A stretch of DNA of 64,000 nt from an uncultured Sulfolobales archaeon (GCA_938017505.1 CALIKV010000010.1:76720-140719), one strand, 5' to 3'. Positions 19,651-51,926 are shown, numbered from the stretch's first letter. Program-made: numbers and translations. Notes: generated by a model not told the origin, from the sequence alone.

Positions 19651-21017
19651 ATGGAGAAAGTTGATATAATTGTGTATGGTAGGGCATGTAGTGACTTTAG
19701 ATCAAGTTAACCGAGTAATCTCTAAGGGTGCTGTAGTAGTTAAGGATGGTGTCATTATTGATGTAGGTGAGGAAGGAGACATACGCGGTAAGTATGAGGC
19801 GGAGGAACTAATTGAGAGAAAAGATCATGTAGTGATTCCTGGTTTGGTTGATTGTCATACTCACACACAACAGTACTTGCTTAGATCCGCCATAAATGAT
19901 GAAATGCTTCAACTACCTCCTGTCTGGACTAAGGTTTTGGTTCCTTTCGAGAGAATTATGGGAGAAGATCTAGCGAGGTTGTCGAGTAGAGCTAGCATAA
20001 TTAAATGCTGAAGAACTGAATTACGTACTTTGTTGAGGCTGGTGCTCCGTACCCCGAGATCTTGGCTGAGGAGGTTCTTGCTTCCGGTATTAAGGGTGTG
20101 GTTACTTACGCAACATGTGATATTGCTGAAGAGAAGGTCGCAGAGCCTGCAGAAGTGATTAAGAAGGTCGAGAGACTCCGCGGTATGTATAGTGGTCGCG
20201 GAACAAACCTCCGTGTGCGGGCTAGTTTAAGGCAGGTTATGATGGTTTCTGAGGAGTTGATGGAGGGAGTAATTGAGTTTAGTAGGGAGCATGGTTTGGG
20301 ACTTACTCTCCATCTTGGTGAGTATCGGGGGTGGACTACACACTCGCTAAGTATGGCTTGAGGCCTCTGGAATACTTAGTTAAGCGAGGGATTAAGGAGA
20401 TCAAGCCAGTCATCATAGCTCACGGCGTCTGCTTCTCGCCGAGGGAGGTGCACATACTTAAAGAACACGGACTCGGGCTCTGTTAGCGTCCCTCAGTCGA
20501 TTCATGGCTTATGGGCATACATTGAGTAGGGCTCACTGACTTAGAGGGTCTCAAGTTAGGTATTGGGAGTGATGGTGGTGCTTGGGGCGAGATAGACCTA
20601 CTACATGAAGCTAAGATCGCTAAAGCCTTAAGTAAAGCAGCAAGCACCTCAATCACCTACTACAAAGCAGGACTAGACTCAAACACTCTACTCAAAATAC
20701 TGACAGGATCTACAGGATCTTTAGTGAGTGAAAAAATCGGAAGACTCGAGAAAGGATATGCAGCAGACATAGCAGTACTGAACATAAAAGACGTTAAGAA
20801 CCTACCTATACACAACCCTGTAGATACCGTAATAAATTATCTCGATGGAGACAACGTCACAGACGTGATCGTTAATGGGAAACTAGTAATTGAGAATGGG
20901 AAAGTCAAGACTCTAGACGGGGAGAAAATCACAGAAGAACTACTGAACTGGGAAGAAGAAATAAAAGAAAAATTCAGTGAACTAGCAAAACAACTCAAAA
21001 CAAGCCACAATATCTAG
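19651..21017 (+). pseudogene. amidohydrolase (MtaD / chlorohydrolase-type deaminase) pseudogene with multiple frameshifts and in-frame stops
   Basis: - **Family homology is spread over all three frames.** The pieces are MEKVDIIVYG / HVVTLDQ..VVVKDGVIIDVG..IPGLVDCHTHTQQ / MLKN-TGA-ITYFVEAG / LTLHLGEY / LAKYGLRPLEYL..IIAHGV / GIGSDGG / GRLEKGYAADIAVLN.
- **Lesions:** there are at least 5 lesions.
- **Composition:** the segment is clearly AT-richer than its neighbours. Confidence 0.85.
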
Positions 21018-22564: not shown

Positions 22565-23014
22565 TTAATTAACTGCGGTGGTTGCGAGCTTCTTATTCCT
22601 GGCTTCCTTCAAGTATTGTATGGCGGCTGAGATGCTTCCTCTAGCCTCTATTAATGGACCCCACTTAACCCTGAATTTCTTAGGCGCTAGCGGTCTCACC
22701 CTCTTCTTAACCCTTCTAGGTACGTAGGAGCTCTCCATCTCTTTAAGACCGAATGTTCCATCAATCATTTCAGTGACAACGTCTCTCTCAATCAGCTTGA
22801 GCAACGCCTTCCTCAACCTATCCTCACCTACTAGCCCGCTTAACTCCCTCCTTAACTCCTTCCAAGCCAGCGGCCTCCCCTTACCCTTAATGATTAAAAC
22901 CACTAAATCCTCGAGCTCCTCATCGCTGGGAGCTCTCATAACTAATACTTCCTCGTCCTCATAAATAACTCTCGGCTTCTTACCTGTATCCTTAACCGTA
23001 TTAAGGTCTGCCAA
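22565..23014 (-). CDS. hypothetical winged-helix-like protein with basic C-terminal tail
   Basis: 149-aa ORF. The central region LAWKELRRELSGLVGEDRLRKALLKLIERDVV looks wHTH-like and the tail is Lys/Arg-rich. No family was recognised. Confidence 0.5.
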   Translation of the reverse strand: MADLNTVKDTGKKPRVIYEDEEVLVMRAPSDEELEDLVVLIIKGKGRPLAWKELRRELSGLVGEDRLRKALLKLIERDVVTEMIDGTFGLKEMESSYVPRRVKKRVRPLAPKKFRVKWGPLIEARGSISAAIQYLKEARNKKLATTAVN

Positions 23015-23135: not shown

Positions 23136-23507
23136 TTGATCTGCCAACCCTACCTTAGACGTAGGAGCAAGTGGCACTCCTTAAAAATAAACGATGAGCG
23201 AGAGTGTAGGTGGTGGTACTCAGTGAAGGTCTTAACGTTAGTTGCCGAGATCCCCCTGCAAATGAACGAAGCGTACATGCGTAAATTATTGAAGATCAAG
23301 AGCTACATTACGGAGGAGATAGGAGTTAACGTCTCTCTAGTTGTCATGTCGACTGACGACCAGCCTAAGTTAATAGTGTTCGACGAGATTATCAGCCTTA
23401 ACGAAAGCTTTACAAACATCGTTAAGGCGATAACACGGGGGCTAGCTGACAACATAGGCGATCCGAACTTCCTGGAGAAAGCTGTAGGAGGGGTTGAATC
23501 AAGTTAA
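23136..23507 (+). CDS. small hypothetical protein (probable start GTG 23223 or ATG 23262)
   Basis: The first 29 codons of the ORF overlap the TATA-like box and look non-coding. The downstream part, KVLTLVAEIPL...GVNVSLVVMSTDDQPKLIVFDEIISLNESF, is coding-like. Confidence 0.5.
   Translation: MICQPYLRRRSKWHSLKINDERECRWWYSVKVLTLVAEIPLQMNEAYMRKLLKIKSYITEEIGVNVSLVVMSTDDQPKLIVFDEIISLNESFTNIVKAITRGLADNIGDPNFLEKAVGGVESS
23181..23191 (+). promoter_or_regulatory. TATA-like box for the 23223 gene
   Basis: TTAAAAATAAA lies about 30-40 nt upstream of GTG 23223. Confidence 0.45.
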
Positions 23508-23580
23508 AACTGCTAATCACGTTACGTGAACTTCAGCAACATAACCCTGGCCAGTTCTCCGAAGCTACAAGATAATCAGG

Positions 23581-23976
23581 TTGAAGAAGCTCAAGACATC
23601 GATGGGGCTTAATCCCGTGCTCCGTCTCGAGCGTGTCATCCCTACCACGCACAGAGCGAGATTCGGGGTTATGAAGTCGTTATGGCTGAGTGTATCTCTT
23701 CGCTACTTACGCATATCTCGCCCATTATCGAGTATTAACTCTAATCTTGATATGGGTAGATTAGGGGGTATAGAAAGATATTCAAGGTCTTGGAGGTTCG
23801 CTGAGCATGTTAGGGGGTCTGTTGGAGAACATAGCAGGAAGGTTGAGAACATTACGTGGGGCCACATCCATGAACAGGAAGTACGATCTCATCACAGTGC
23901 TGGAGGGCTTAGAACTTTCAACGAATTAGTTAATCTTGTGACGGTTTTTTATGCAGGTTTATTAATTCTCACTTAA
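23581..23976 (+). CDS. doubtful ORF (Arg/Ser-rich, TTG start); region may be non-coding or an RNA gene
   Basis: This is the only ORF of 60 aa or more in a gap of about 490 bp. Its composition is unlike neighbouring genes, and a T6 run (23945-23950) lies inside its 3' end. Confidence 0.2.
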   Translation: MKKLKTSMGLNPVLRLERVIPTTHRARFGVMKSLWLSVSLRYLRISRPLSSINSNLDMGRLGGIERYSRSWRFAEHVRGSVGEHSRKVENITWGHIHEQEVRSHHSAGGLRTFNELVNLVTVFYAGLLILT

Positions 23977-24001
23977 TATACCCTTGGAAAGGTGTTGAAG
24001 A

Positions 24002-24709
24002 TTGGCCGTCGACGTGAGGTTAATGACTGTCGAGCTGCTTAAGGCTTATAAGAAGATTCTCAAGTATAAAGAGCTTGAGAACCTAACCGGTCTCTCCGCA
24101 CCTGGTTTATGGAGGTACATCAATAAACGTGTACGTCCTACAAAGGATAGGGCCGTAGAACTCTTTGAGATCCTTACTAGCCAGCAGGTGGTTGAGGAGA
24201 TTCTTAGGGGCAAGCTCATCGAGATAGACGAGAACTTGTTTAACTTATCGATGATCATTTACGAAGTGCCTATCCTGAAGATACTGTCCTACACGGCTTA
24301 CAGGGAGTTCCACCGTTACAACATAAACGCCGTGGTCACCGTTGAGGTTGACGGGATACCAATAGGCGTTATGATTGCTGACGCGCTTGAGTCAAAGTTA
24401 GTTATAGTTAGGAGGAGGCCTGAGATAGGCGTTAAGAAATATCACCAGGTCAGCTACATAGCGAGGGACCCGCCGGCAGTGGTCTCTCTCTTCATGCCTT
24501 CCGAGTCTCTTGAAGGAGGTGATCGCGTCCTAATAGTGGACGACCTGCTCAACAGCGGAAGGACTTCCTCAGCTCTCGTGAAGCTGATACGCATGACCGA
24601 CGCCGTGCCTGTAGGGCTCTTCTCAGTGGTTGCGATCGGCGAGAGGTGGCGTGAGCAACTGGAGAATGAAGTAGACAAGATCCACGTAGCTCTGAGGCTT
24701 AGTAGGTAG
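24002..24709 (+). CDS. phosphoribosyltransferase-domain protein with N-terminal HTH (PurR/GfcR-like putative regulator)
   Basis: The N-terminal HTH is LENLTGLSAPGLWRYINKRVRP. The C-terminal type-I PRT domain has the PRPP loop VLIVDDLLNSGRTSSA. Confidence 0.7.
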   Translation: MAVDVRLMTVELLKAYKKILKYKELENLTGLSAPGLWRYINKRVRPTKDRAVELFEILTSQQVVEEILRGKLIEIDENLFNLSMIIYEVPILKILSYTAYREFHRYNINAVVTVEVDGIPIGVMIADALESKLVIVRRRPEIGVKKYHQVSYIARDPPAVVSLFMPSESLEGGDRVLIVDDLLNSGRTSSALVKLIRMTDAVPVGLFSVVAIGERWREQLENEVDKIHVALRLSR

Positions 24710-24730
24710 AGATAGAATCACACGTGCTTA

Positions 24731-25639
24731 GTGTTCGGTATGTGCGAGGCAAGCACGCCCGAGGTCCTCGTTGACGTTTTCTCGGTCTCAATACTTATAG
24801 AGGCTTTGGCACCTTCGAAACTAAGCACCGTTAGCGGGTATAGAGGCGTTAAGGACTTGAACATAGTTCACTTCGCATACACCCCACACGTAATAAGACC
24901 TCCTTTAGAGAGAATAGTCGTCGACTCTTTAGAGGGTAGGGAGTTCACGCTAGGTAGACACTTGAGGGAGTACGCACTCCAAGCACTCAAGCACCCGTTA
25001 ATCAGAACCAACACTGCGTTCGGATACTTAATGCTTGCAATCCCGTTAGCCTACATCTTAGGTAGGGCTACTGTGTTTGGAGATGACTTGAAGTCAGCAA
25101 GAACGTTAGTCGACAAGTACTCGCCCTACGTAGTAGAGGGCTTAAGGAAGGAGGGTAGCGGCGACTTCTACTCAGCTCTAAAGATCGCCTCTATGAGGCA
25201 TATAGGCAATTACTTCGGGTCAATCCCGTCGGTAACGGAGGTGGATGAAGAGCTATTTAATAAAGTCACCCTATGGGACGTTCTAAGGGATTCAATGAAC
25301 ATAGATCTGGTAAGTCACGAGATAGTGACTGGGTTTAAGAGGGTCTTAGAGGTGTATGAGTACTTGAGCCTTATGGAAGGGCTTGAGGATCTCCTGATTA
25401 GAGTGGGTTCCGCGCACACAAAACTACTGGGGGAGTACATAGACACCCTGGTCCTAAAGAGCAGGGGTCTAAACGCTGCTCTAACCCTTAAACACCTCTC
25501 TAACCTGAGGATGGTGGTCAGCGACGAGACTTGGGCTGTAATAGACACGTACGTCAGGGAGCAGAAGCTAAACCCCGGCAGCATCTCCGATATAGTCGCT
25601 GCCGGTGTGGCGCTCTATCAAGTGAGGGGGCTATGTTAA
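24731..25639 (+). CDS. CitG/MdcB-family (triphosphoribosyl-dephospho-CoA synthase-like) protein, diverged
   Basis: Blocks are co-linear with CitG. LIEALAPSKLSTVSG aligns with E..LSPKPGLVD, RTNTAFGYLMLAIPLA with GVNTHKG.IF.LGLL, IDTLVLKSRG with GDTNV.SRGG, and LNPGSISDIVAAGVAL with LSPGGSADLL. The alignment was made by eye from memory. Confidence 0.55.
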   Translation: MFGMCEASTPEVLVDVFSVSILIEALAPSKLSTVSGYRGVKDLNIVHFAYTPHVIRPPLERIVVDSLEGREFTLGRHLREYALQALKHPLIRTNTAFGYLMLAIPLAYILGRATVFGDDLKSARTLVDKYSPYVVEGLRKEGSGDFYSALKIASMRHIGNYFGSIPSVTEVDEELFNKVTLWDVLRDSMNIDLVSHEIVTGFKRVLEVYEYLSLMEGLEDLLIRVGSAHTKLLGEYIDTLVLKSRGLNAALTLKHLSNLRMVVSDETWAVIDTYVREQKLNPGSISDIVAAGVALYQVRGLC

Positions 25640-26217
25640 GGGTTCTGAATGGAAGGATGGTAAAAACTAGGAAGGAGTTATCGGCGTTGATGGGTGAGGG
25701 GGTGGAAGCCTACGTATTCTTAGGAGGTCCCAGGCTCCCGTTAGGACACGTAAATGCGGTTCTCGGAAGCCCCTTCTACGTAGTCACGGGGAAATACGAT
25801 GATATATACGTAACTAAGGCGGCAAGGGATTTAGGCAGGTTGCTAGACGCTCGCGTCCTTGACCTCGGGAGGTATCACATGGTAGGCATCGGGGGTATAG
25901 ACCCTCATTACTGTGTATCTAAGGCCCTGAAGTTGTTGAGCGATATTGACACACGCGAAGTCCTGGTCTTCTCATACCTACCGGCAATGAATTGGTGTGA
26001 CCTCGTGCCGAGGTTAAATGTTAGAGCAGGGCTGCCGGAGCTCTCCGACTTTATTGAAAGAGTTAAGCCGAGGTTGTTCGTGAGTCTTGGGAGTGAGAGT
26101 TGCTGTAAGTTGAGTGGGGGTATCAAGGTAATCACAATGAGCGCGAGCGATACCTACCTAGACATAAACCTGGACTCAGACCTCCCTAGCCATGACCCAG
26201 GCGTCCTCACCGTCTAA
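25633..26217 (+). CDS. metallophosphoesterase-fold protein lacking canonical metal ligands
   Basis: The start ATG 25633 overlaps the upstream stop (ATGTTAA). The blocks are co-linear with metallophosphoesterases but substituted: VFLGG for GD, VTGKYDD for GN(H/C)D, GIGG for H, and VFSYLP for GH.H. Confidence 0.4.
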   Translation: MLRVLNGRMVKTRKELSALMGEGVEAYVFLGGPRLPLGHVNAVLGSPFYVVTGKYDDIYVTKAARDLGRLLDARVLDLGRYHMVGIGGIDPHYCVSKALKLLSDIDTREVLVFSYLPAMNWCDLVPRLNVRAGLPELSDFIERVKPRLFVSLGSESCCKLSGGIKVITMSASDTYLDINLDSDLPSHDPGVLTV

Positions 26218-26652
26218 GTAGTAGAACCTGATCCTCTGAACCTTCTTAAACCCTAGCTTCTCGTAGAGACTGATGGCGGGTTCGTTACTAACCCTGACCT
26301 CGAGATACACTTCACTCACCTTATAGAAGGCCTTCAACCTATTTAGCGCTTCAATCATTAAGGCACGTCCTATACCCCTACCTCTGTAGTCTGGATGGAC
26401 GGCGATGCTTATCACGTGCCCAACCTTCTTAAAGAGAGACTTATTTATGTAACCCAATCCCCTCTCAACCCGACACATGACATAGCCTACCACTAAGGAG
26501 TTTAGGTCGGCAACTAGGAAGGCCTCACCCCACATATCTAGATGATGCCTCCAAAAATCTTCCGGGTAATGCTCTCTAAGGGAGACCATGTTTATATTTA
26601 TGACAGCAGGTAAATCCTCCGCCCTCGCGATCCTTATTAGGGCCTCGTTCAT
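26176..26652 (-). CDS. rimI: GNAT N-acetyltransferase (RimI / archaeal Ard1-type protein N-terminal acetyltransferase)
   Basis: 158 aa. Acetyl-CoA motif YRGRGIGRALM and the RimI-like end YYLDGEDAWVM. Confidence 0.85.
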   Translation of the reverse strand: MNEALIRIARAEDLPAVININMVSLREHYPEDFWRHHLDMWGEAFLVADLNSLVVGYVMCRVERGLGYINKSLFKKVGHVISIAVHPDYRGRGIGRALMIEALNRLKAFYKVSEVYLEVRVSNEPAISLYEKLGFKKVQRIRFYYLDGEDAWVMAREV

Positions 26653-26714: not shown

Positions 26715-27986
26715 TTGGACGTGTACGCGATGCTTAGGGAACTAGCGTTTCACCCGGCGGAGGAGATAAGGTGTAGTAAATCGAGGCACCTGGACGGTGT
26801 CAAGATAGGCTTTGGACTGACAGGCTCCGTTGCGATTTACAAGGTAATTGACGTCATGCGTGAGCTGATTAGGAGGGGGGCGGTGATTCATACAGTCATG
26901 TCTAAAGCCGCAACTGAGTTGCTAGGTCCTACGTTGGTTGAGTGGGCGGTTGGGAGTAAGGTGTTCACGGAGTTTAAGGGTGAGGTAGGTCATGTCTCTT
27001 TAAGTAGAGAAGTTGATTCCTTCGTGATAGCTCCAGCTACCGCCGACGTGATAGGTAAGGTTGCCGGCGGCATATGTGATAATCCTGTCTCCCTAACTGC
27101 CGTCAACATTCTTGGTCTTAAAAAACCTGTGGTAGTGGTTCCGGCCATGCACTCAGGTCTCTGGAACTCCCCTCCGGTAGTTGAGTCTCTGAACCGCCTT
27201 GAGGGTTTAGGAGCCACTGTGGTCCCTCCGGACCTCTCTGAGGGTAGGGCTAAGTTCCCGGGGGATGACGATATCCTAGCGGCTGTGGAGGTAGCCACCT
27301 TGAGAGGGAGGGATTTAAGGTCTTTGAGACTATTGGTAACAGCCGGGCCCACTAGGGAGTACCTCGATGAGGTGAGGTACATCACTAACTCAAGCAGTGG
27401 TAAGATGGGTGTAGCCGTAGCTAGGGAGGCGTACTTCCGGGGGGCTGAGGTTACGCTCATCCACGGACCCCTAGCTGTAGAGAGGCCGCACTACGTCAGG
27501 GCGGTTGAAGTAAGGACGACCGAGGAGATGCTTGACGCAGTGATGACGGAGGTCAGAAGCAGGAGATATGACGCCGTAGTTCTGGCGGCGGCCCCAGTGG
27601 ATTTCAAGTTCACACAATTCACTGAGGGGAAGATCAAGTCGGACGTGAATAGACTGAGTGCTGAACTTGAGGTCACACCTAAGATATCGCTTAACCTGAG
27701 GAAGGAGTTCTCAGGCATCGTAGTAGGGTTCGCCGCTGAGGTGGTTAGAGGCAACACTGACAAGCTGATCAAAGCTGCGCAGGACAAGTTAGAGGACAGG
27801 GGATTCGATTTAATTATAGCTAACGACGTCAGCCAGCCTGATGTAGGTTTCGCCTCTGACTATAATGAAGTGGTAATAATCACTAAGGGGGGACGTAGTG
27901 AGGTAATTAAGAAATCGTTGAAAGACGTTATAGCCAGGAGGATTGTAGACCTACTTAAAGAGGAGCTAGCTAATAATGAACGTTAA
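26715..27986 (+). CDS. coaBC: bifunctional phosphopantothenoylcysteine decarboxylase / phosphopantothenate-cysteine ligase
   Basis: 423 aa. The N-terminal flavoprotein domain is GLTGSVAIYK...APATADVIGK. The C-terminal CoaB domain is VTAGPTREYLD..RYITN.SSGKMG. Confidence 0.92.
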   Translation: MDVYAMLRELAFHPAEEIRCSKSRHLDGVKIGFGLTGSVAIYKVIDVMRELIRRGAVIHTVMSKAATELLGPTLVEWAVGSKVFTEFKGEVGHVSLSREVDSFVIAPATADVIGKVAGGICDNPVSLTAVNILGLKKPVVVVPAMHSGLWNSPPVVESLNRLEGLGATVVPPDLSEGRAKFPGDDDILAAVEVATLRGRDLRSLRLLVTAGPTREYLDEVRYITNSSSGKMGVAVAREAYFRGAEVTLIHGPLAVERPHYVRAVEVRTTEEMLDAVMTEVRSRRYDAVVLAAAPVDFKFTQFTEGKIKSDVNRLSAELEVTPKISLNLRKEFSGIVVGFAAEVVRGNTDKLIKAAQDKLEDRGFDLIIANDVSQPDVGFASDYNEVVIITKGGRSEVIKKSLKDVIARRIVDLLKEELANNER

Positions 27987-28854
27987 AGTACCTTTACATA
28001 TCTCGGGCTTCTGGGTCCCCCATATGACCGGTGATCCGCTGACGGCAGGTTCTCTTGGCGCCGGGATCACGTTGAGACCGTGTGTTACGGCTCAAGTTAT
28101 GAAGGGCCGTGAGGATAGGGTTATAGTGAATTCAAGAACCATGACTCACGGTTTAATTGAAACTATTAAGAGAATCACCAGTAGCGACACTGTTAACATC
28201 GAGGTTTCCACGCCAGCCCTCCTGGGTGAGGGGCTGGGCTTCAGCGCAGCCTTATCAATAGTAGCGGCGTCATCGGCGCTTATCAACACCGGCAGAAGCG
28301 CGACGTTGACTAGAGTCGGCGTCATAGCGCATGAGGCTGAGGTGATGATGTTGACCGGGTTGGGCGATGTCGCGGCTGAACTACGCGGCGGCGGTTTAGT
28401 CATCAGGACTAAGCCAGGGGCGCCAGGTGTTGGCGAGGTAGACGTATCGCCTGTCAGGGACTCCGTCAGCGTTGTGGCTTGTCTCATTAGAAGCGACCTG
28501 GCAACGCCGGACATGCTTAGAGTTTATGGCCCCAAGATAAAGGAGGTGGGTAGGGAGATTTTCAGGAGATTCATCGCTGAACCATCCTTCGATAAGTTCC
28601 TTGAGTTATCCCACGAATTCAGTAGGTCAGTCTTCATAACTGACGACGTGGACTCCACGCTTAGATCTGTCTTGAGTAGGTACTTAAAATCCGGGGAAGT
28701 CCTCACGTATTTCATAAAGAAAGGCACTCTAGTGGTGGTTACGTCTGGAAAGCCTAGCACGGCCTTACTGGAGGACGTTGGAAGGACCGGCATCAAGTTG
28801 ATAGGGGTTTTCGAGCCGTCGTTTGAGGGCACAACAATGGTTTTCAGTTCTTAA
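27976..28854 (+). CDS. pantoate kinase (archaeal PoK, GHMP family)
   Basis: GHMP motif LLGEGLGFSAALS. The 292-aa gene sits between coaBC and the PPS gene, as in the archaeal CoA pathway. Confidence 0.75.
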   Translation: MNVKVPLHISGFWVPHMTGDPLTAGSLGAGITLRPCVTAQVMKGREDRVIVNSRTMTHGLIETIKRITSSDTVNIEVSTPALLGEGLGFSAALSIVAASSALINTGRSATLTRVGVIAHEAEVMMLTGLGDVAAELRGGGLVIRTKPGAPGVGEVDVSPVRDSVSVVACLIRSDLATPDMLRVYGPKIKEVGREIFRRFIAEPSFDKFLELSHEFSRSVFITDDVDSTLRSVLSRYLKSGEVLTYFIKKGTLVVVTSGKPSTALLEDVGRTGIKLIGVFEPSFEGTTMVFSS

Positions 28855-28856
28855 GG

Positions 28857-29675
28857 ATGCAAAGCAGTAATGAAACGGTGGGATGGATGGGTGAGGAAGT
28901 GGAGTCTAGCGTGCCGCGTACTCATCCCAGGTACAAGTCTTTACTCGTCAGGGAGAGACTGATTAAGGGATTCGAAGAAGGCTATGTTGCGAGGGCCGGC
29001 TTGATAGCTCATGGTAGGGGGGAGTGCTTCGACTACCTAATAGGTGAGACAACCATTGAACCGGCTGTAAAGGCCATCGAAGCCGCTGCCGCCGCATTAC
29101 TCCTAGCCAGGAACCCGGTAATTTCAGTTAACGGCAACGTAGCTGCTTTAGTGCCTGAGGAGGTGGTGAGGCTGGCCGACGTTGTTAACGCTAAGCTAGA
29201 GGTTAACCTCTTCTACAGAACTGAGGATCGAGCGAGGAGGATAGCCGAGATCCTTACGAGGCACGGGGCCCGGGAGGTACTCGGCGTCGACGACGCCGTG
29301 GCTGAGATACCTGAGCTACTGAGCCAAAGGAGGAAGGTAAGTCGTAGAGGGATATTGATCGCTGACGTGGTTCTGGCACCGCTTGAGGACGGGGATAGGA
29401 CGGAAGCGCTGAGGAGAATGGGTAAGTCTGTTATAACCATTGACCTAAACCCGCTTTCAAGGACCTCCAGGTCAGCAACAATAACGATAGTTGACAATGT
29501 AGTGAGGGCGATGCCTAAGATGGTAGAGTACGCTCGGGAGCTAAGTACTTACTCAAGGGAGGGGCTCACCGACATACTGAATAACTATGACAACAACGAA
29601 ACCTTAGTACAGGCGTTAAAGCACATCATTAAGAGGCTTGACGAGCTCTCTCAATCGAAACTCACGTTATTCTAG
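28857..29675 (+). CDS. 4-phosphopantoate--beta-alanine ligase (phosphopantothenate synthetase, PPS)
   Basis: HPRYKSLLVRERLIKGFEEGYVARAGLIAHGRGECFDYLIGE matches the conserved N-terminal region of archaeal PPS (COG1701 family). Confidence 0.8.
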   Translation: MQSSNETVGWMGEEVESSVPRTHPRYKSLLVRERLIKGFEEGYVARAGLIAHGRGECFDYLIGETTIEPAVKAIEAAAAALLLARNPVISVNGNVAALVPEEVVRLADVVNAKLEVNLFYRTEDRARRIAEILTRHGAREVLGVDDAVAEIPELLSQRRKVSRRGILIADVVLAPLEDGDRTEALRRMGKSVITIDLNPLSRTSRSATITIVDNVVRAMPKMVEYARELSTYSREGLTDILNNYDNNETLVQALKHIIKRLDELSQSKLTLF

Positions 29676-29751
29676 TCCGGTCGGGTTTGAAAACGCCTAG
29701 ACCGGCACATAAAGTAATCTCTGTCTTCACGATACGGTGGTCAGCACTCCC

Positions 29752-30594
29752 TTACCCACTTATCCTCTCCTTAAGCTTCCTAAACTCCTCCTCACTCATA
29801 CTCCAATACTCACTTGGTCCGGGGAAAAGCCCTTTCTTAACGTCGTCGACGTACCTGCTTAACGCCTCCGCTATCTGATCGCTAAGGTTGGCGTACCTCC
29901 TGACGAAGGGGGGAGGCGTTGGATTTATGCCTAGGAGATCATAAATAACTAATATCTGGCCATCGCATTGCACGCCAGCACCTATACATATGGTCGGCAC
30001 GCTCACCTTCTTAGTTATCTCGGCCGCCACTTGCCAGGCCGTGAACTCTATGACTATCGAGAAAGCGCCAGCCTCCTGAAGGGATCTAGCCGCTTCAATC
30101 ATGTTCAGCGCGTCTTCAGCGTTCTTGCCCCTTAGCTTGTAGCCCCCAAGCATTAAGTACCTCTGCGGGTTAAGTCCTATGTGTCCCATCACAGGTATCC
30201 CCGCCTTAGTCAACGCCTCAACGGTTTCAACGACCTCAAGACCCCCCTCGATCTTAACAGCGTCCGCACCCATTTTAATCAATTCACCGGCATTCCTGAT
30301 CGCCTCAGTCTTGCTAACCTCGTAAGTCAGGAACGGCATGTCAGCTACTACTAAGGCCTTGGTCTTCGCGTTCACCACAGCCCTAAGGTGATGCTTCATC
30401 TCGTCGAGCGTGACCGGCAGGGTGGAAGCATAACCCATGATCACCATACCTAAGGAGTCCCCAACAAGCAGGCCGTCAATGCCAACCCTATCAGCTAGGG
30501 TTGCGTCGTAATATGAATATGCGGTGACCATGACGATCTTCTCGCCAGACCTCTTCTTCTTTACGAAATCGTGAGGGTATATTTTATTGCTCAT
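29752..30594 (-). CDS. panB: 3-methyl-2-oxobutanoate hydroxymethyltransferase
   Basis: KIVMVTAYSYYDATLADRVGIDGLLVGDSLGMV...VVADMPF...VKIEGG. This is the canonical PanB pattern. Confidence 0.93.
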   Translation of the reverse strand: MSNKIYPHDFVKKKRSGEKIVMVTAYSYYDATLADRVGIDGLLVGDSLGMVIMGYASTLPVTLDEMKHHLRAVVNAKTKALVVADMPFLTYEVSKTEAIRNAGELIKMGADAVKIEGGLEVVETVEALTKAGIPVMGHIGLNPQRYLMLGGYKLRGKNAEDALNMIEAARSLQEAGAFSIVIEFTAWQVAAEITKKVSVPTICIGAGVQCDGQILVIYDLLGINPTPPPFVRRYANLSDQIAEALSRYVDDVKKGLFPGPSEYWSMSEEEFRKLKERISG

Positions 30595-30660
30595 AACATA
30601 CCCTGTAATTATTAACTTGAGAGGTTAATAATGATGTGGCCGGGCCTTGAATGATACGGC

Positions 30661-31596
30661 TTATAAGCCCGCCCTCATCAGGGACTCCTTAGCCCTAACC
30701 ATCAGCCACAGGACCTCGTTAATCGGAGTCTTCACACCGACGCTCATACCTCTAGCCACAATCTCGCCGTTTATGTAATCGACTTCCGTCCTCCTCCCGC
30801 TTACTAGGTCCTGATACATTGATGAGTAGTTCTCCCCCGTTGTTTCAGCAACCTTTATTAATTCATTCAGGGGGTCTACGTGGAGCACCAGACCGAGTTT
30901 CTCAGCTACTTCACGCACCTCCATCACCACCCCGGTAGCTACTCTGAATAGGTTTTCATCCATTATCACGTGCTTGTTTCTTACACCGTGAAGGGCTGTC
31001 AAAGGGTTTATGGCCGCGTTAACGGATAACTTAACCCACCTATAGGGTTCTATGTCGTCAACCACCTCCACATTGAGCACCTTAAGTAGGGATGAGATAC
31101 TCTTCAGCGACTCTCTAGGAACCCCCTTAGAACCTAGGTAGCTAGTTGAGCCGCCGATCCATGTGAATTCGTAGAGACCGGATCTGTGAACGCCGTGATT
31201 CAGGACCAGAGCAGCAACCCTCTCAGGACCTAAGACCTCGAGGGCCTCCTCGTAGGACCTCAACCCATTCTGGCAGGTTACCAAAACCCCTCCATCACCT
31301 AAGTACGTCCTTACAGCTCTCAAAGCCCTCGAGAAGTCGTACGCCTTAGTAGTCATTATGATCAGGTCGAAGGACCCGATCTTCAACAGGTCGTCGTACG
31401 TTACGAGACGCATTCCACTAGGTCTCTCTACGGAGTCGTTAACCTTACGGAGCCGCAGGCCACTGCTTCTAATCATCGCTAGGCGTTGAGGATCCCTGAG
31501 CAGTACGTATGGCTCCACTCCAACGCTCAACAACGCGTAGGACATTAAGGTCCCTACAGCCCCGCTACCAACAATGAGAACTCTCTCCATACTCAC
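30661..31596 (-). CDS. panE: 2-dehydropantoate 2-reductase
   Basis: N-terminal Rossmann VLIVGSGAVGTL, a KAYD block and the C-terminal ApbA domain (SSMYQDL..GRRTEVDYINGEIV). Confidence 0.85.
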   Translation of the reverse strand: MSMERVLIVGSGAVGTLMSYALLSVGVEPYVLLRDPQRLAMIRSSGLRLRKVNDSVERPSGMRLVTYDDLLKIGSFDLIIMTTKAYDFSRALRAVRTYLGDGGVLVTCQNGLRSYEEALEVLGPERVAALVLNHGVHRSGLYEFTWIGGSTSYLGSKGVPRESLKSISSLLKVLNVEVVDDIEPYRWVKLSVNAAINPLTALHGVRNKHVIMDENLFRVATGVVMEVREVAEKLGLVLHVDPLNELIKVAETTGENYSSMYQDLVSGRRTEVDYINGEIVARGMSVGVKTPINEVLWLMVRAKESLMRAGL

Positions 31597-33836: not shown

Positions 33837-36011
33837 ATGAGACTAAACCTAGGCCTGCTCTCCAGAAATAAAGGGAAGATAATCACCGCAACGTCTCTAG
33901 CGTTCCTAGTTATCTCGGCATGGATCGGGTCCTACTTAAGGCTTTACCCAGTCTTCAACTCTTTGGATATGGGTTATGATCCAATGCTCAACGAGCTTGA
34001 CCCGTACTCGGAGTACTGGACGGCTGAGAAAATCCTTGAGAAGGGATTCGCTTACTACTTCAGCCTGGACAGATCTAATAATGAGACGCACATCTTCTGG
34101 TACCCGTGGGGGAGGGATTTCGTTAAATCAACGTTGCCACTCACCCCAGTGTTCTCGGTCGTCACGTACTACGTCGCGAGGATGTTTAGCCCTGACATGA
34201 GTCTGCAGGAGTGGATGGTCTACGTACCCGTAGTTTTCTTCGTACTCTCCCTCGTAGGGATCTACCTAAGCGCTAGGGAGATGTGGGGCGATCCTCCAGC
34301 GATCGTGGCTGCGCTTGTAGCAGCGCTGATGTTCAACAGCAGGCAATTAGCAGGCTTCACAGTAAAATACGCTGCCGGCCTAGGTTTCATCTTCCTAGCC
34401 ACTTACTTCCACATAAGGACCTGGAAGAGGAGAAGTCTCATAGACGCGTTGCTGGCCGGTGTTTTCCTATCCATAACAGCCTCCGGCTGGGCTGGCTTCA
34501 ACCTGCTCCTAGCCGCCATGTTACTGCAACTAGTCTTCCAGCCGTTGATAACTCAGGTGTCGAGGAACGATTTAATTCTATGGGGTCTTGAGACCCTTCC
34601 CCTGGCGCTGACCATCACCCTTATCCCATTCTACGGCCCTACCTACTTGATCTACAGTGTCGGGATCTTAATACCTATGGGTTTCCTGGTCATCGGTATT
34701 GCGTTATTGCTCGAGCGTGTAGCCTTGTTAAAAACCGTTAAGCTTAAGTACCCCTTGCTGGTTAAGTGGCGCGTCATGTACTTATTGTTAGTGGGGTTGG
34801 TAGGTGTAGGCGGTCTCCTAGGGCTCACAACGGGATTCATCCACGTTAAAGGCAAGGGTCTAGCGGCGATGGGGTTAGGAGGGCTGACGCACGTCTTAGT
34901 AGGCACTGTTCAAGAGTACGCGCCCGCCACCGCGTACAGTTTCGTATGGAACGGCGGGACGCCTCTGATAATCTCCGTGTTTATGATCCTGTACTTCGCT
35001 TACAGGGCCTTTGTCAAGAAAGATCTGACAAACCTCTTCATAGGGGTCTTCCTGATTATCACTGCCTACGCTACTCTTAACGTCTCGTACTTCTTCCCTC
35101 TGCTCAATTACGTGGTAGCTATATCTCAGAGTAGCTTCGTAGCCCTATTTATACCGTATTTAAGTAAGAGGAGGGATCTACTGCTCAGAATACTAAGTAT
35201 AGCGATGCTGGCAATGCACTTATCCCTCACGCTGTTCCAGGGGATGACAATGTGGGTACCTGCCTACAGAGCTCAGGTACCGATGATAATAGCTTCAGGC
35301 CTGGACGTACGGAATGACGTGCCGGCATGGCTTGACGCCCTCAACTGGATTAAGAACGAGACCCCTGAAGACTCAGTCGTCATCTCATGGTGGGATTACG
35401 GATACTGGCTCAGCGTCCTGGGGGAGAGAGCCACCGTGGCTGATGGCGCCACGTTAAATGCCACTCAGATAGAGTTACTGGCTAAAGCACTAACCGGGAC
35501 TGAGGAGGAGGCATTCGAGATCTTCACTAAGCACTTCCATTGCACCCCTGGCAAGACCTATCTGGTAATTTACGACGTAGCCCTCTTCTCAGAGCGACTG
35601 GGCTCCACATATGTGGGTCCTCTGGTCTTCCAAGGCGGGGTTTTCATAGGGGCTGACATGGCTAAGGGGGTCTCAGCGATATACAGGATAGCTGGTAGAA
35701 CAGCCCCCGTAACGACCACCACCATAGACCAATACGCCTACACTATACCTAACTGGGTCGACGCTTCATTGACCAATGCAACCCTCTACAAGATATTCCT
35801 GCACTCGATTCACGAGGTATTCGGCGTTGAGGGGCTTAAGGTTAGGTTTCTCTACGGCGCTCTTCAGTACCCGCAGTACGCGCCCGAGTTGCCGAGACCA
35901 ACGCTGAAGGTCTTCAAGCCAGCGCATATCTCCGTGAGCCAGCTCTACGAAGGAAGCAACGTCTACGTCGTCGTTGCTGTTTACGAGATGGGTGGGCAGG
36001 TAGTTGAATGA
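33837..36011 (+). CDS. aglB: archaeal oligosaccharyltransferase AglB (STT3 family)
   Basis: 724 aa with about 13 N-terminal TM segments and the catalytic-domain motif ISWWDYGYWL (WWDYG). Confidence 0.9.
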   Translation: MRLNLGLLSRNKGKIITATSLAFLVISAWIGSYLRLYPVFNSLDMGYDPMLNELDPYSEYWTAEKILEKGFAYYFSLDRSNNETHIFWYPWGRDFVKSTLPLTPVFSVVTYYVARMFSPDMSLQEWMVYVPVVFFVLSLVGIYLSAREMWGDPPAIVAALVAALMFNSRQLAGFTVKYAAGLGFIFLATYFHIRTWKRRSLIDALLAGVFLSITASGWAGFNLLLAAMLLQLVFQPLITQVSRNDLILWGLETLPLALTITLIPFYGPTYLIYSVGILIPMGFLVIGIALLLERVALLKTVKLKYPLLVKWRVMYLLLVGLVGVGGLLGLTTGFIHVKGKGLAAMGLGGLTHVLVGTVQEYAPATAYSFVWNGGTPLIISVFMILYFAYRAFVKKDLTNLFIGVFLIITAYATLNVSYFFPLLNYVVAISQSSFVALFIPYLSKRRDLLLRILSIAMLAMHLSLTLFQGMTMWVPAYRAQVPMIIASGLDVRNDVPAWLDALNWIKNETPEDSVVISWWDYGYWLSVLGERATVADGATLNATQIELLAKALTGTEEEAFEIFTKHFHCTPGKTYLVIYDVALFSERLGSTYVGPLVFQGGVFIGADMAKGVSAIYRIAGRTAPVTTTTIDQYAYTIPNWVDASLTNATLYKIFLHSIHEVFGVEGLKVRFLYGALQYPQYAPELPRPTLKVFKPAHISVSQLYEGSNVYVVVAVYEMGGQVVE

Positions 36012-37242
36012 GATCTGCGGAGATTTCGTAGTGGTTAACCCGTATGTGTGGTTATCTAACGCGTGTGTCCGCTTCACCGATCGAATTGAGGATATCTACA
36101 CTCTCTCAGGGGGTGGCGTTGCCGAGGGAGGGTTAAGGATAATCACTCACGGGATGGCGTCGACGCATACTCACTTAGGACTCTACCCGGTAAGGAGCAC
36201 TGTGGCAGCGGGGCTGGATCTCGACTCCTGGGTTAAAGGTAGGGCGTGGCGTTGGGAGAGATTCGTTAGGGGGAATCCTGAGGTTAGCTACCTGTCCTCG
36301 CTAATAGCTGCAACGGAGATGCTCTTGTCAGGCGTCACTCTCATAGCTGATATGCATTTCAATGAGGAGCTCGTCTACAGGACACTCAGCGAGATCGGGG
36401 TTAAGGCTGACTTAAGCGTGGCTATAATGGACGGCGGGGTCTTCGATAGCTACGAGGAAGCTCTTGAGGAGAACCTTAGACTGCTTAAGGCCGTTCAAGG
36501 CGCTGACGTCAAAGTCAGGCTTGGGCCCTGCACCCCGAGATTATTAACTCCTGAGCAGTTCAGGGAGATTGTTACGTTAGCTAAACAACTCGATATCGGC
36601 ATTCATACTCATCTAGCCGAGGTTCGTGAGGATATCGAGTGGCTTAAGAGCAGGTATTCCATTTCACTAAAGGAGTTCGTGGACCTAGTCGGTTTGAGGG
36701 ACACGGACTCTATAGTGGCTCATGCAGTGTGGGCTGAAGACGTAATTGATTTACTTTCGTCAAGCAACATCACGGTATCTCATTCACCAAGGTCTAACAT
36801 CTTGCTGGGGGATGGAAGAGCCCCTGTAAGGAGGTACTTAAGGCATGGCGTTAACGTCTCACTGGGCGTCGATGTGGCCCCCACATACGACTTACGGGAT
36901 GAGTTAAAGACGTACGTGTCGTTGCACTACCCTGGCGAGGGGCCTTCAGACACTCTTGAGGCCTTCCGTCTGTCAACTATAAACGCGTATAGGGGGCTTG
37001 GCTTCGGGAGCGGAGAGCTATCCCCGGGCGAGGTCGCGGACTTGGTTGTGTGGTCAGTCACTGATCCACTAGTTGATGACCCCCTAGCTCAAGTAATATG
37101 GGGTTCCTCTAGGGTTGAGGAGGTTTACGTATCCGGGAGGTTAATCCTCAAAGAGGGAAGACCTGTGAGTAGCGTGGATCTCCTGAGGGTCAGGGAGAGG
37201 CTACACGAATACCTCAGAGAATTCTCGAGATCACAGCCCTAA
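36004..37242 (+). CDS. amidohydrolase-family deaminase (MtaD / chlorohydrolase-like), intact
   Basis: THTHLG metal motif, IHTHLAE, AHAVW, VSLGVDV. It overlaps aglB by 8 nt and is a paralog of the pseudogene at 19651-21017. Confidence 0.8.
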   Translation: MNEICGDFVVVNPYVWLSNACVRFTDRIEDIYTLSGGGVAEGGLRIITHGMASTHTHLGLYPVRSTVAAGLDLDSWVKGRAWRWERFVRGNPEVSYLSSLIAATEMLLSGVTLIADMHFNEELVYRTLSEIGVKADLSVAIMDGGVFDSYEEALEENLRLLKAVQGADVKVRLGPCTPRLLTPEQFREIVTLAKQLDIGIHTHLAEVREDIEWLKSRYSISLKEFVDLVGLRDTDSIVAHAVWAEDVIDLLSSSNITVSHSPRSNILLGDGRAPVRRYLRHGVNVSLGVDVAPTYDLRDELKTYVSLHYPGEGPSDTLEAFRLSTINAYRGLGFGSGELSPGEVADLVVWSVTDPLVDDPLAQVIWGSSRVEEVYVSGRLILKEGRPVSSVDLLRVRERLHEYLREFSRSQP

Positions 37243-48649: not shown

Positions 48650-49459
48650 CTACGATATATACTCAGCCAGCTCGCTCAATGAGGGCAGCTCAAAGATCCC
48701 CACATCGTCATCGATTATAATCGGTCTAATTCCTTGGATCACGGCTTCATCCCTAAGTATCGGCGATATGAACGTATCCGGGCTTAACGTTATTCTCGAG
48801 CCTGTCTGGTAAGCTCCGGTTGCCGGTAGGGTTACGAAGGTCTTGCCTGAGATCTTCAACTCCCCGACTAGGAAGCAATGAAACTTGCCGAGCCTCCCCA
48901 CGCTATCCCGTAAGGTTATGCTCGGGTGCTCATGCCCTAAAATCAAGTAACTCCACTCACGTCCTGCGTCCCTCGGAAGCACTTTATGCCCGTGAACGAT
49001 CAGGTACTCACCCATCATGAAGAACTCCTCCAACCTGAAATCAAACCTCTTCTTAAGGATTGGGAGGTAGTTGTCGTGGTTCCCCCTGACCACTACAACC
49101 TCCTTCACCCTAGGTGTGACATGCTCTAAGAAGCCGACCAGCTCTCTCCTCTCAACAGGGCTTAAGCCGTTGAAGCTGTGTTTAAGGTCGCCCGCGATAA
49201 CTAACTTGTCAACGGCGAGTTCACTCAGGAGTCCGTCAACTAGCTCGATGGCCCTCTTAAGTTGGAAGCGAGGTATGAAGACGCCCTTAGAAGCCAGCTC
49301 GTCCTCATACCCTATATGTATGTCCGCTATAATCAAAGCTCTATACCTCCTTAAGTAGAGCGCGGGTGAAACGCCTGCTATGTCAGCTCCCTGAATTATC
49401 TCCATCGGCATCATAGATGAAGGTGCTACGAAGTATTTAAAAGCTTGAGCGATGATCAT
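48650..49459 (-). CDS. metallophosphoesterase (ICC-like, COG1407 type)
   Basis: Intact motifs IADIHIG, AGDLKH, VRGNHD and LGHEHP. Confidence 0.8.
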
Positions 49460-50226: not shown

Positions 50227-51141
50227 TTAGGACCTCATTAAGAACTTGACTAAGAACAGCCCGTAGACGCATGAGGTTAGGGGGTCAGTCCTTAGGCGTA
50301 GCGAGAACACCTCAGCGTTACGGCTAACAGCCAACGCCTTCACAGGCCTTAACGAGTACTCCTCAACGTCCGTAGTTATTAGGAGCACTCTCCCCACCCT
50401 CTCCACGAGCTTAGGTACAGCCTCAGGCTGGACTAGATGAGCAGTGACTAGATACCCGTATGCGAGCTCCTCCGCAACCCCCCACATAGAGGGGCTGGCG
50501 GTGATGATGAAGGGCCTCCCTAGGAAGGCTTTCAGCTCCTCTAGGACTCCGCTGTAGGACCGTAGGAGTTCCCCAAGCACAGCAACATCAATGGTCTCTA
50601 GCTCGCTCAATATCCTCGATTTACGTACGGAATCCCTCCCAGCCAAGTTGCCCGCCGCAAGTGACGCCACTACATGCGTATCAATCAACCACTCCTGAGT
50701 GTCCAGATCAACTACCTTATTCACCCCTAACCTGTACTTCAGCTCCTCACTAAGGGCTCTCTGAGAGACAACCAGTACTTCGTGGTTAGTCCACGTCAGT
50801 TGGTCGATTAATAAGCTCAGGGTGTGAAGACCTTCGCTCGAGGAATAAACCAGTATTTTCGATTCCCTGCCCTCATCGTAGGGGGCTATATAATACATCA
50901 GGTCCTCAGGACCTACGTACTTAACGTCTTTATCGGTTATGGAGGAGAAAGCTATTGCCGTGTACCTAGCCGGCGACTCATAAGGGTCGCATGTAGTGGT
51001 AATTACTTTACTAGCGTCCTTAATGAAGCCAGCGACCACTGAGGCATGGACTTTTAAGTTGTTAACTCTCTCCTTACTTAACGTACTGGCTAACTCCTCT
51101 ACTAGACCAGAGAGTCCCTTAGACTCGTCTCGCACAAACAC
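50227..51141 (-). CDS. hypothetical protein, possibly double-SIS (sugar isomerase-like) fold
   Basis: 304 aa with two half-length repeats of alpha/beta character (KVITTTCD...ILVYSSSEG and PFIITASPS...VLLITTD). The call is weak. Confidence 0.35.
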
Positions 51142-51926
51142 CCCACCCTCTCATCAGGTCCGGGCAACCTAGGTATCAGCTCCGCCAGTATCCTTTTAGC
51201 CTTCTCCACGTTCTCGGACATCACCCTAGCCACCTCCTCAGCGGTGACAGGCTTCTCCGCCCACACATCGTAGTCGGTTACCAGCGCTATTGTAGCGTAA
51301 TGCATTTCAGCTTCCCTGGCCAGGTTAACCTCGGGGACCAAAGTCATGCCAACCACATCGGCCTTAAAGACCTCCTTCCAGACCCTGGACTCAGCTCTGG
51401 AAGAGAATCTCGGACCCTCTATACAGACGTAGGTCCCTCTGGGATGTATCCTCACGTTTAGGGACTGAGCTACCGACGTGATTAAAGTCCTCAACGTCGG
51501 GCAGAAAGGATCAGCCAAGCTCACATGAGCTACGACAGGTCCGTTGAAGAAGCTATACTCCCTCTTCTTGGTCATATCTATGAACTGGTCAGGAACGACC
51601 AGGTCCCCAGGCATGAAGTCCTCCCTAAGTGATCCTACAGCTGACACAGCCACAACCCACTTCGTCCCCAATGACTTAAGAGCCCAGACGTTAGCACGAT
51701 AATTAATTTTGTGGGGAGGTATCTTATGACCCCTGCCATGTCGGGGGATGAAAGCGATGGATCTGCCCTTGTAGGTACCAACCATCACATTATCAGAGGG
51801 ATTCCCATAAGGCGTGTATATTTTAAACTCCTTAACGCTCTCAAACATCCCTGGGTCGTAGAGACCGCTACCGCCGATAATGCCTATCTCGACCTTAGTA
51901 GGAGGCTTAACTAGCACACGAACCAC
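51102..51926 (-). CDS. mtnP: S-methyl-5'-thioadenosine phosphorylase
   Basis: [12 protein letters not shown]...[29 protein letters not shown]...AVGSL...GMT is the canonical MTAP/PNP-family pattern. Confidence 0.92.

Follow-up and report, generated by a model that had tools for sequence, protein, structure and literature searches.

CitG and MdcB are triphosphoribosyl-dephospho-coenzyme A (CoA) synthases (EC 2.4.2.52), which serve the citrate lyase and malonate decarboxylase systems. To our knowledge, their family is biochemically known only for making the prosthetic group of these two enzymes; we know of no archaeal member with an assigned reaction, nor of experiments that establish catalytic roles for the conserved motifs of the family. 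A different class of proteins has a DNA-binding domain at the N-terminus and, in addition, a phosphoribosyltransferase domain that carries the phosphoribosyl pyrophosphate (PRPP) motif. It includes PurR of Bacillus subtilis and GfcR of haloarchaea, and GfcR of Haloferax, a helix-turn-helix (HTH)-phosphoribosyltransferase protein, acts as an archaeal transcription factor (PMC10838023). Here, we analyzed a 64,000-nt stretch of DNA from an uncultured Sulfolobales archaeon (GCA_938017505.1, CALIKV010000010.1:76720-140719; hereafter, the window), in which both kinds of gene meet. At positions 24002-26217, a gene for a predicted HTH-phosphoribosyltransferase protein (gene 1), a CitG-like gene (gene 2), and a gene for a protein of metallophosphoesterase fold (gene 3) follow one another on the plus strand. 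Each of these proteins comes from a known superfamily, but their combination was not found described, and, in agreement with a preliminary description of the locus, no characterised function for the trio was found. With somewhat better than even confidence, we read the trio as a single operon, limited to one Zestosphaera-like group within Desulfurococcales, that would encode a PurR-like regulator, a CitG-type enzyme, and a non-catalytic subunit derived from a phosphoesterase.

The tight packing of the three co-directional open reading frames (ORFs), which was part of the preliminary description, was seen again in an ORF listing and by direct reading. Gene 1 (24002-24709; 235 aa, TTG start) is followed after 21 nt by gene 2 (24731-25639; 302 aa) if the latter starts at GTG 24731, or after 30 nt if it starts at ATG 24740 (299 aa), which is the start taken in an identical database protein (P0006). 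No separate promoter for gene 2 is evident in these 21-30 nt. An ATGTTAA heptamer at 25633-25639 makes the start codon of gene 3 (25633-26217; 194 aa) overlap the stop codon of gene 2. Starting gene 3 at the alternative ATG 25657 would shorten its product by eight residues; ATG 25633 is preferred because a Shine-Dalgarno-like GAGGGGG run lies just 5' of it and because the N-terminus read from it, MLRVLNGRMVKTRKEL, is homologous to that of an orthologue from locus L010, MLVRVVLGRRVKSRKDL, whose N-terminal strand is matched by the extra residues. We infer from this arrangement that the three genes are co-transcribed.

The trio also occurs in the orthologous loci L001-L016, L019, L020, L022, and L026, with its gene order unchanged and with frames that overlap or nearly touch. 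Two of these loci were found via gene 3, fourteen are from species-level GTDB-based genomes, three are from further assemblies (L019, L020, and L022), and one is a metagenome contig (L026). The frames of genes 1 and 2 overlap by 14 nt in L019 and by 8 nt in L022, and the gaps in L016 measure 1-3 nt. All GTDB-based genomes with the trio belong to Desulfurococcales (Zestosphaera, 'Zestomicrobium', and uncultured Desulfurococcaceae), and scans made for lineage-specific patterns did not find the trio outside this Zestosphaera-like clade. To judge by the names of its nearest homologues and loci, the window, too, derives from a Zestosphaera-like member of this order. The three-gene linkage is thus conserved in related genomes, yet it is confined to one Desulfurococcales clade and is not a pan-archaeal module. 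Two loci are informative about the cohesion of the genes. L016 lacks the upstream neighbour and has an inverted CoA block, so that both flanks are rearranged, and the trio is intact. In L029, the CitG gene has been deleted while gene 1 and a motif-bearing metallophosphoesterase gene are kept; the AT-rich spacer of 345 nt between genes 1 and 3 (L029:4706-5049) retains a CitG remnant of 52 residues (IYTNMCLGYLIL / NNPSIYTNMCLGYLILRTS).

The identification of gene 2 as a member of the CitG family, as first proposed, was borne out by a profile search. Its product matches Pfam CitG (PF01874) over profile positions 4-284 of 284 (E 6e-26, 92.1 bits against a cut-off of 27), and the same domain is carried by all 17 of its homologues. 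It matches none of the NCBIfam equivalog models for CitG and MdcB (TIGR03125, TIGR03132, PRK10096, and PRK01237) at E ≤ 0.1, and its orthologues in L016 and L019 have no NCBIfam match at E ≤ 0.001; the control, E. coli CitG, reaches 649 bits. The signature residues of the protein had been described as diverged, which is only partly right and overstated, because all five motifs shared with CitG/MdcB (E-x4-P-x-K, N-T-x-x-G, E-x3-G-[FY], D-T, and N/S-P-G-x-x-[SA]-D) are kept in the window, the last three as E-x3-G-F, D-T, and N-P-G-x-x-S-D, when the protein is aligned with E. coli CitG and eleven orthologues. Deeper orthologues vary, with DT replaced by DS and NPG by N[LT]G. An hhalign comparison of the gene 2 profile with the single E. 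coli CitG sequence aligned only the C-terminal motif (E 0.11) and was uninformative. The apparent split of the CitG gene in L022 was due to masked sequence, not to gene decay. The genomic setting also differs from that of classical CitG: tblastn searches of the window with E. coli CitX, CitD, CitC, CitE, and CitF returned nothing below E 0.1, and gene 2 is instead accompanied by genes for an HTH-phosphoribosyltransferase protein and a dead phosphoesterase. Gene 2 falls within an uncharacterised archaeal branch of CitG-like proteins and is a putative nucleoside triphosphate-dependent triphosphoribosyl transferase.

Its closest detectable relatives likewise lie outside citrate lyase and malonate decarboxylase contexts and are biochemically uncharacterised. 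The gene 2 family profile matches an archaeal structure (PDB 3h9p, E 2e-4) and, in a comparison beyond the clade that comprises this one haloarchaeal plasmid match, a CitG-domain protein encoded on a Natrinema megaplasmid (239 columns aligned by hhalign with 96% probability and E 3e-9; ~28% identity). On that plasmid (Natrinema thermotolerans CP031304; L106:8974-10418), the CitG-domain gene and a DUF447 gene have 4 nt in common, and genes for a CofD-like 2-phospho-L-lactate transferase and a dihydropyrimidine-dehydrogenase-like protein lie 3-4 kb upstream. In DUF447, archaeal CitG-like proteins have a conserved partner unlike those of gene 2. A further relative is found in methylotrophs, where the orf7 slot of the mch-orf5-orf7 segment of the tetrahydromethanopterin (H4MPT) island is taken by a CitG-family gene annotated as a triphosphoribosyl-dephospho-CoA synthase and as a protein of an H4MPT-linked pathway (PMC3615186; PMC11533326). 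The neighbours of the Natrinema and methylotroph genes (DUF447 in the one case and mch, orf5, and fae in the other) are unlike the HTH-phosphoribosyltransferase and phosphoesterase-like genes beside gene 2. From orf7 and other such members, it follows that CitG-family proteins outside citrate lyase systems are known, though they are not biochemically defined.

This methylotroph context bears on a first alternative, which we consider distinctly unlikely: gene 2 may serve the biosynthesis of a pterin cofactor, its product making the alpha-ribosyl linkage of a methanopterin-like modified folate, as is suspected for orf7 and its methanogen homologues. Methanopterin contains an alpha-ribosyl-5-phosphate unit that fits CitG-type chemistry, and Crenarchaeota have been reported to use methanopterin-like folates. 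Besides the presence of a CitG-family gene in the H4MPT island, this alternative is favored by the grouping of gene 2 with archaeal rather than bacterial CitG proteins and by the occurrence of a gene annotated as this synthase in Methanobacterium formicicum, a methanogen with no known citrate lyase (PMC7386643). However, the ~35 ORFs of the window that were checked for family membership included no pterin gene and no RFAP-synthase gene, no DUF447 partner adjoins gene 2, and the trio occurs in one clade only, whereas a pathway for a C1 carrier should be widespread. Moreover, the function of orf7 itself rests on mutant phenotypes. Our literature search on CitG in connection with methanopterin, COG1767, or DUF447 found nothing relevant.

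A second alternative starts from the genes on the other side of the trio, which the preliminary description had placed immediately upstream of a CoA biosynthesis cluster. The cluster itself was confirmed (26715-31596; CoaBC, pantoate kinase, phosphopantothenate synthetase, PanB, and PanE), but it does not follow the trio directly: a RimI-like GNAT gene (minus strand, 26176-26652; it matches TIGR01575 with 101 bits, the cut-off being 86) lies between them, convergent with gene 3 and overlapping its 3' end by 42 nt. Because of this convergent gene, the link to the CoA cluster is one of adjacency, and since the whole syntenic block is common to all trio-bearing genomes, this neighbourhood says little by itself. 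The preliminary description held that a CitG-like fold acting on a dephospho-CoA-like or other nucleotide substrate would be meaningful in this context; what was found is adjacency within one syntenic clade, not co-occurrence beyond general synteny or a shared transcription unit.

Under this alternative, the substrate of the CitG-like enzyme would be dephospho-CoA or a different CoA intermediate supplied by the neighbouring cluster, giving a ribosylated CoA derivative or a prosthetic-group precursor. It fits the established biochemistry of canonical CitG, which uses ATP and 3'-dephospho-CoA, and the five CoA genes adjoin the trio in every locus with enough flanking sequence; even in L016, the inverted CoA block is still within 2 kb of the trio. 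We nevertheless hold it to be improbable. The GNAT gene that overlaps the end of gene 3 separates the two units, so no shared transcript would be expected, and the adjacency is confined to the one clade. CitX/MdcG, acyl carrier protein, and citrate lyase subunits were not detected in the window with E. coli queries, and gene 2 misses all NCBIfam models for CitG and MdcB. It is closer to the DUF447-paired CitG-like gene of Natrinema, around which a stretch of ~19 kb contains no annotated CoA-pathway gene.

Gene 3 could be placed only by way of its relatives. Its product has no Pfam or NCBIfam match; the Pfam Metallophos model did not match it or its four closest homologues even at E ≤ 10, and phmmer against PDB gave chance-level matches only (E ≥ 0.7). 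An HMMER profile built from five close homologues retrieved 41 proteins at E ≤ 1e-3 from 1.84 billion representative proteins. We then considered an alignment of 41 members, made up of the gene 3 product, two close homologues, and 38 proteins from the profile search. Metallophos_3, Metallophos_2, or Metallophos domains were detected by Pfam in 15 of the 41, so that the tie of gene 3 to these models is indirect and runs through its profile-search relatives. The AlphaFold2 model obtained with this alignment, which includes true metallophosphoesterases, reached a predicted local distance difference test score (pLDDT) of 91.4; a model from a 5-sequence alignment (pLDDT 45) was discarded. When the former was compared with PDB using Foldseek, the first 39 matches were all metallophosphoesterase-fold proteins or complexes containing one, including TT1561, aq_1956 (2yvt), GpdQ, purple acid phosphatases, Rv0805, MPPED2, and Vps29. 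The best match was 1uf3 (E 3e-5, template modeling (TM) score 0.63), which is the structure of the Metallophos_3-type protein TT1561 and, like aq_1956, shares the fold with a Foldseek probability of 1.0 and a TM score of ~0.6. The predicted fold of gene 3 is the four-layer alpha/beta-beta/alpha sandwich of metallophosphoesterases, as had been suspected.

The second part of that suspicion, the absence of metal ligands, also held. Distant members of the gene 3 family with the full motif set (D[IL]H, GD, GN[ML]D, H[HY]PP, and GHIHE) match Metallophos_2 and Metallophos_3. In contrast, the window protein has substitutions in each of the five metal-binding motifs, with the following replacements: DxH by NGR (motif I), GD by GG (motif II), GNxD, which is GNH[DE] in the superfamily, by GKYD (motif III), the histidine of motif IV by tyrosine (SYLPA), and GHxH by GSES (motif V). 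The loss is graded among orthologues at this one syntenic position. Those in L016 and L029 keep DxH, GD, H, and GHYHDN and have motif III alone altered (to GECDD), those in L015, L019, and L022 keep part of the set, and those in L010-L014, like the window, keep none. The orthologues of these deeper relatives (L016 and L029), at the same locus and with four of five motifs, indicate that gene 3 encodes a recently inactivated pseudoenzyme. It resembles Vps29 in keeping the metallophosphoesterase fold without catalysis, but it has no relation to retromer.

The question of whether genes 2 and 3 still have a function can be addressed by their rates of evolution. Estimates of dN/dS by the Nei-Gojobori method from four independent pairs were 0.01-0.11 for gene 1, 0.13-0.20 for gene 2, and 0.15-0.24 for gene 3. 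All three genes are under purifying selection, with genes 2 and 3 sharing a similar regime that is more relaxed than that of gene 1. Across the clade, identity is 50-80% for gene 1 and 27-60% for gene 2, and that of gene 3 to the window falls to 27%; RimI, phosphopantothenate synthetase, and PanB stay above 60%, and CoaBC above 50%. Genes 2 and 3 thus evolve faster than all their neighbours. This speed, the loss of every catalytic motif of gene 3, and the actual deletion of CitG in one lineage (L029) would fit a pair of decaying relics without current function, an explanation that we regard as very improbable. The reading frames are intact in more than 20 loci, and dN/dS of 0.13-0.24 over four independent pairs is not that of relics. 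For gene 3, such values imply that it is still under selection, and several of its positions outside the metal sites (a DD pair, GIGG, [CG]D, and GLxEL) are conserved family-wide.

Gene 1 was found to carry an intact phosphoribosyltransferase domain, in line with its first description. Residues 95-221 match Pfam Pribosyltran (E 5e-10, 39.3 bits against a cut-off of 26.3). Its best NCBIfam model, PRK08558, bears the provisional name 'adenine phosphoribosyltransferase' and scores 173.7 bits, slightly less than its cut-off (184); it is followed by purR_Bsub (E 7e-20, 71.2 bits against 258.7) and then by XPRT and APRT, and the GfcR-type model NF002620 scores 34.5 bits against 115. Structures of APRT and B. 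subtilis PurR in PDB match equally well, at about 3e-8. The PRPP loop of the protein (VLIVDDLLNSGRT) is intact, and the loop DRVLIVDDLL-x-x-GRTS is invariant in ten orthologues. In the same ten sequences, the N-terminal segment ELE-x-[LI]TGL-x-x-P-x-LWRYIN, which spans the would-be recognition helix, is almost invariant. The Pfam scan of the window protein gave no HTH match; HTH_3 is matched by distant homologues in L030 (E 5e-6) and L034 (E 1e-3). Taken together, these features predict that gene 1 encodes an XRE-like HTH joined with a phosphoribosyltransferase domain of type I and of PRK08558/PurR-like kind. Its predicted domain plan is that of PurR and GfcR, but it remains far below the cut-offs of their models, and its predicted DNA-binding domain is XRE-like, whereas that of PurR is a winged helix.

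Homologues of gene 1 also occur outside the clade. A metagenome scan with the gene 1 alignment yielded 12 loci with a full-length or near-full-length match (L026-L034, L036, L037, and L047), of which only L026, with a gene 1 product 80% identical to that of the window, has the full trio. CitG was never found beside the homologues from outside the clade in these metagenome loci. Two of them are associated with purine genes: in a 46-kb contig (L028:3-4714; 50% identity), the homologue is the last gene of a purM-purP-purB-purP-[gene 1] series, and in L034 (L034:269-3652; 32% identity), it sits between purB and purA. In the window, gene 1 heads the CitG operon instead. Gene 1 would therefore seem to be part of a family of HTH-phosphoribosyltransferase proteins that is widespread in archaea and has ties to purine genes, and the location of its homologues within purine-biosynthesis operons suggests that it is a PurR-like regulator, probably a sensor-regulator responsive to purines or PRPP. 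A survey of archaeal purine synthesis (Brown et al. 2011) does not mention an HTH-phosphoribosyltransferase regulator, and the family may be an undescribed archaeal purine regulator.

The same observations permit a reading in which only genes 2 and 3 form a functional pair, with gene 1 as a general purine regulator or salvage phosphoribosyltransferase that merely stands in front of them. We take this as a serious possibility, though one that falls short of being likely. It gains from the much stronger constraint on gene 1 (dN/dS 0.01-0.11 and identity of 50-80% against 27-60% for gene 2), from the presence of gene 1 homologues elsewhere in purine operons without CitG, and from the matching evolutionary rates of genes 2 and 3. 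On the other side, the frames of genes 1 and 2 overlap or nearly touch in many loci, and the short interval before gene 2 shows no promoter of its own. Moreover, gene 1 stays with the metallophosphoesterase homologue in L029, which lacks CitG, and in L016 it has kept both of its partners despite the rearranged flanks. A further point is that adenine is set free in CitG chemistry, which would be a rational link to a purine/PRPP sensor.

Under the three-gene operon that we prefer, the phosphoribosyltransferase domain of gene 1 most likely senses PRPP or a purine nucleotide, and the protein, as a DNA-binding protein, would set transcription from its own conserved promoter. By analogy with CitG/MdcB, the product of gene 2, divergent but probably active, would use ATP as ribosyl donor with release of adenine and transfer a 5-triphospho-alpha-ribosyl group onto an acceptor hydroxyl. 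The ancestor of gene 3 would have been an active metallophosphoesterase at the same position, which plausibly acted on the (tri)phosphate of the gene 2 product by trimming or binding it. In its present form, without metal ligands, the protein may have been kept as a subunit that does not catalyse but binds or serves as a partner, in principle much like Vps29, and a physical or functional pairing with the gene 2 product would be expected. The preliminary observation is confirmed in nearly every point, and its first interpretation is partly supported.

Several observations weigh against this reading. The genomes with the trio all share a wider synteny (the gene for a 149-aa protein, the GNAT gene, and the CoA cluster), and the conservation of the trio could therefore partly reflect lineage-wide collinearity instead of selection acting on the three genes as such. 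L029 retains gene 1 and the phosphoesterase without CitG, which means that the partners can exist without it. Since homologues of gene 1 outside the clade are never beside CitG, gene 1 may simply be a neighbour, and it might also be a working adenine/xanthine phosphoribosyltransferase rather than a regulator. Distant relatives of gene 3, too, are located not beside CitG but directly after a PduO-type adenosyltransferase gene (P0059, P0061, and P0067) or adjoining thiamine genes (P0066). A bolder extension, tentative and on the whole unlikely, is that genes 2 and 3 constitute an undescribed two-protein system, in which an ATP-derived 5-triphosphoribosyl group is passed to a new acceptor (a CoA intermediate, a pterin precursor, or other), a gene 3-type subunit binds the triphosphate end, and a PRPP- or purine-sensing gene 1 product acts as the switch and would be the first candidate for a PurR counterpart in archaea.

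As a motif-intact archaeal CitG-like gene in a compact operon, gene 2 offers a defined target for finding the reaction of archaeal CitG. Gene 3 provides a clean natural series from enzyme to pseudoenzyme at a fixed locus, with orthologues that range from near-intact to fully ligand-less. Gene 1 is a candidate for a so far undescribed purine regulator of Crenarchaeota. Because the lineage is narrow, the impact would be modest unless the chemistry proves new.

The gene 3-like family was also seen in a second setting. At L018:4216-5663, L023:4287-5720, and L024:4267-5600, partly degenerate relatives of gene 3 come right after a gene of the PF01923 family (PduO-type ATP:cob(I)alamin adenosyltransferase-like). 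The surroundings are conserved on both sides, with genes for 2-oxoacid:ferredoxin oxidoreductase, GNAT, and pyruvate kinase on one and for MgtC, NAD synthase, and YjeF on the other. Here the family is paired for a second time with an ATP-ribose-transferring enzyme. PduO-type adenosyltransferases release triphosphate, and the presence of gene 3 relatives beside two kinds of ATP-ribose-transferring enzyme hints that the family handles the triphosphate group, which we offer as a lead and not as evidence.

Upstream of gene 1, a leader block of ~90 nt (23911-24001, plus strand) is conserved and nearly identical to that of L003, the closest relative. It contains a near-palindrome in its upstream part (ATTAGTTAAT, 23925-23934), a TATA-like box (TTTATTAA, 23958-23965), a second AT box (CTTAATATA, 23972-23980), and a Shine-Dalgarno-like AGGTG site (23990-23994), all on the plus strand. 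Visual comparison of upstream regions showed TTTATTAA-type boxes at the same distance in about 20 orthologous loci; as operator candidates, the AT-rich TATA-like boxes and the near-palindrome are not conclusive beyond close relatives by this comparison. We infer that the block acts as promoter or operator of gene 1. The preceding ~380 nt (23530-23910) could not be aligned with L003, although both flanks are more than 90% identical. A 131-aa ORF in this region (23581-23976) was judged probably spurious. An Rfam scan found two tRNAs only and gave no match in the 490-nt gap before gene 1, which is not conserved with L003.

Further upstream, an ORF of ~80 aa (23265-23507, plus strand) is highly conserved with L003 and has no Pfam match; counterparts of 93-95 aa are located upstream of gene 1 in L001, L002, L019, L020, and L022, and it might be a fourth member of the neighbourhood. 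The 149-aa protein mentioned above (22565-23014, minus strand) is 70-96% identical across the clade with a dN/dS of 0.04, and, with L016 as the one exception, its gene is always found upstream of the trio; none of its family matches is significant, and the sole trace is a faint one to DUF5805. Three short consecutive ORFs at 19670-21017 (plus strand) contain N-terminal composite-domain and C-terminal amidohydrolase (Amidohydro_1) pieces, which has the look of an amidohydrolase gene broken by a frameshift or other disruption, or of an error in the assembly; elsewhere in the window, such a gene is intact (36004-37242). The window also encodes a conventional metallophosphoesterase (48650-49459, minus strand; Pfam Metallophos, E 8e-11) and a purine-nucleoside/MTA phosphorylase (51102-51926, minus strand; PNP_UDP_1, E 2e-50), and the latter indicates that purine salvage genes are present in this genome.

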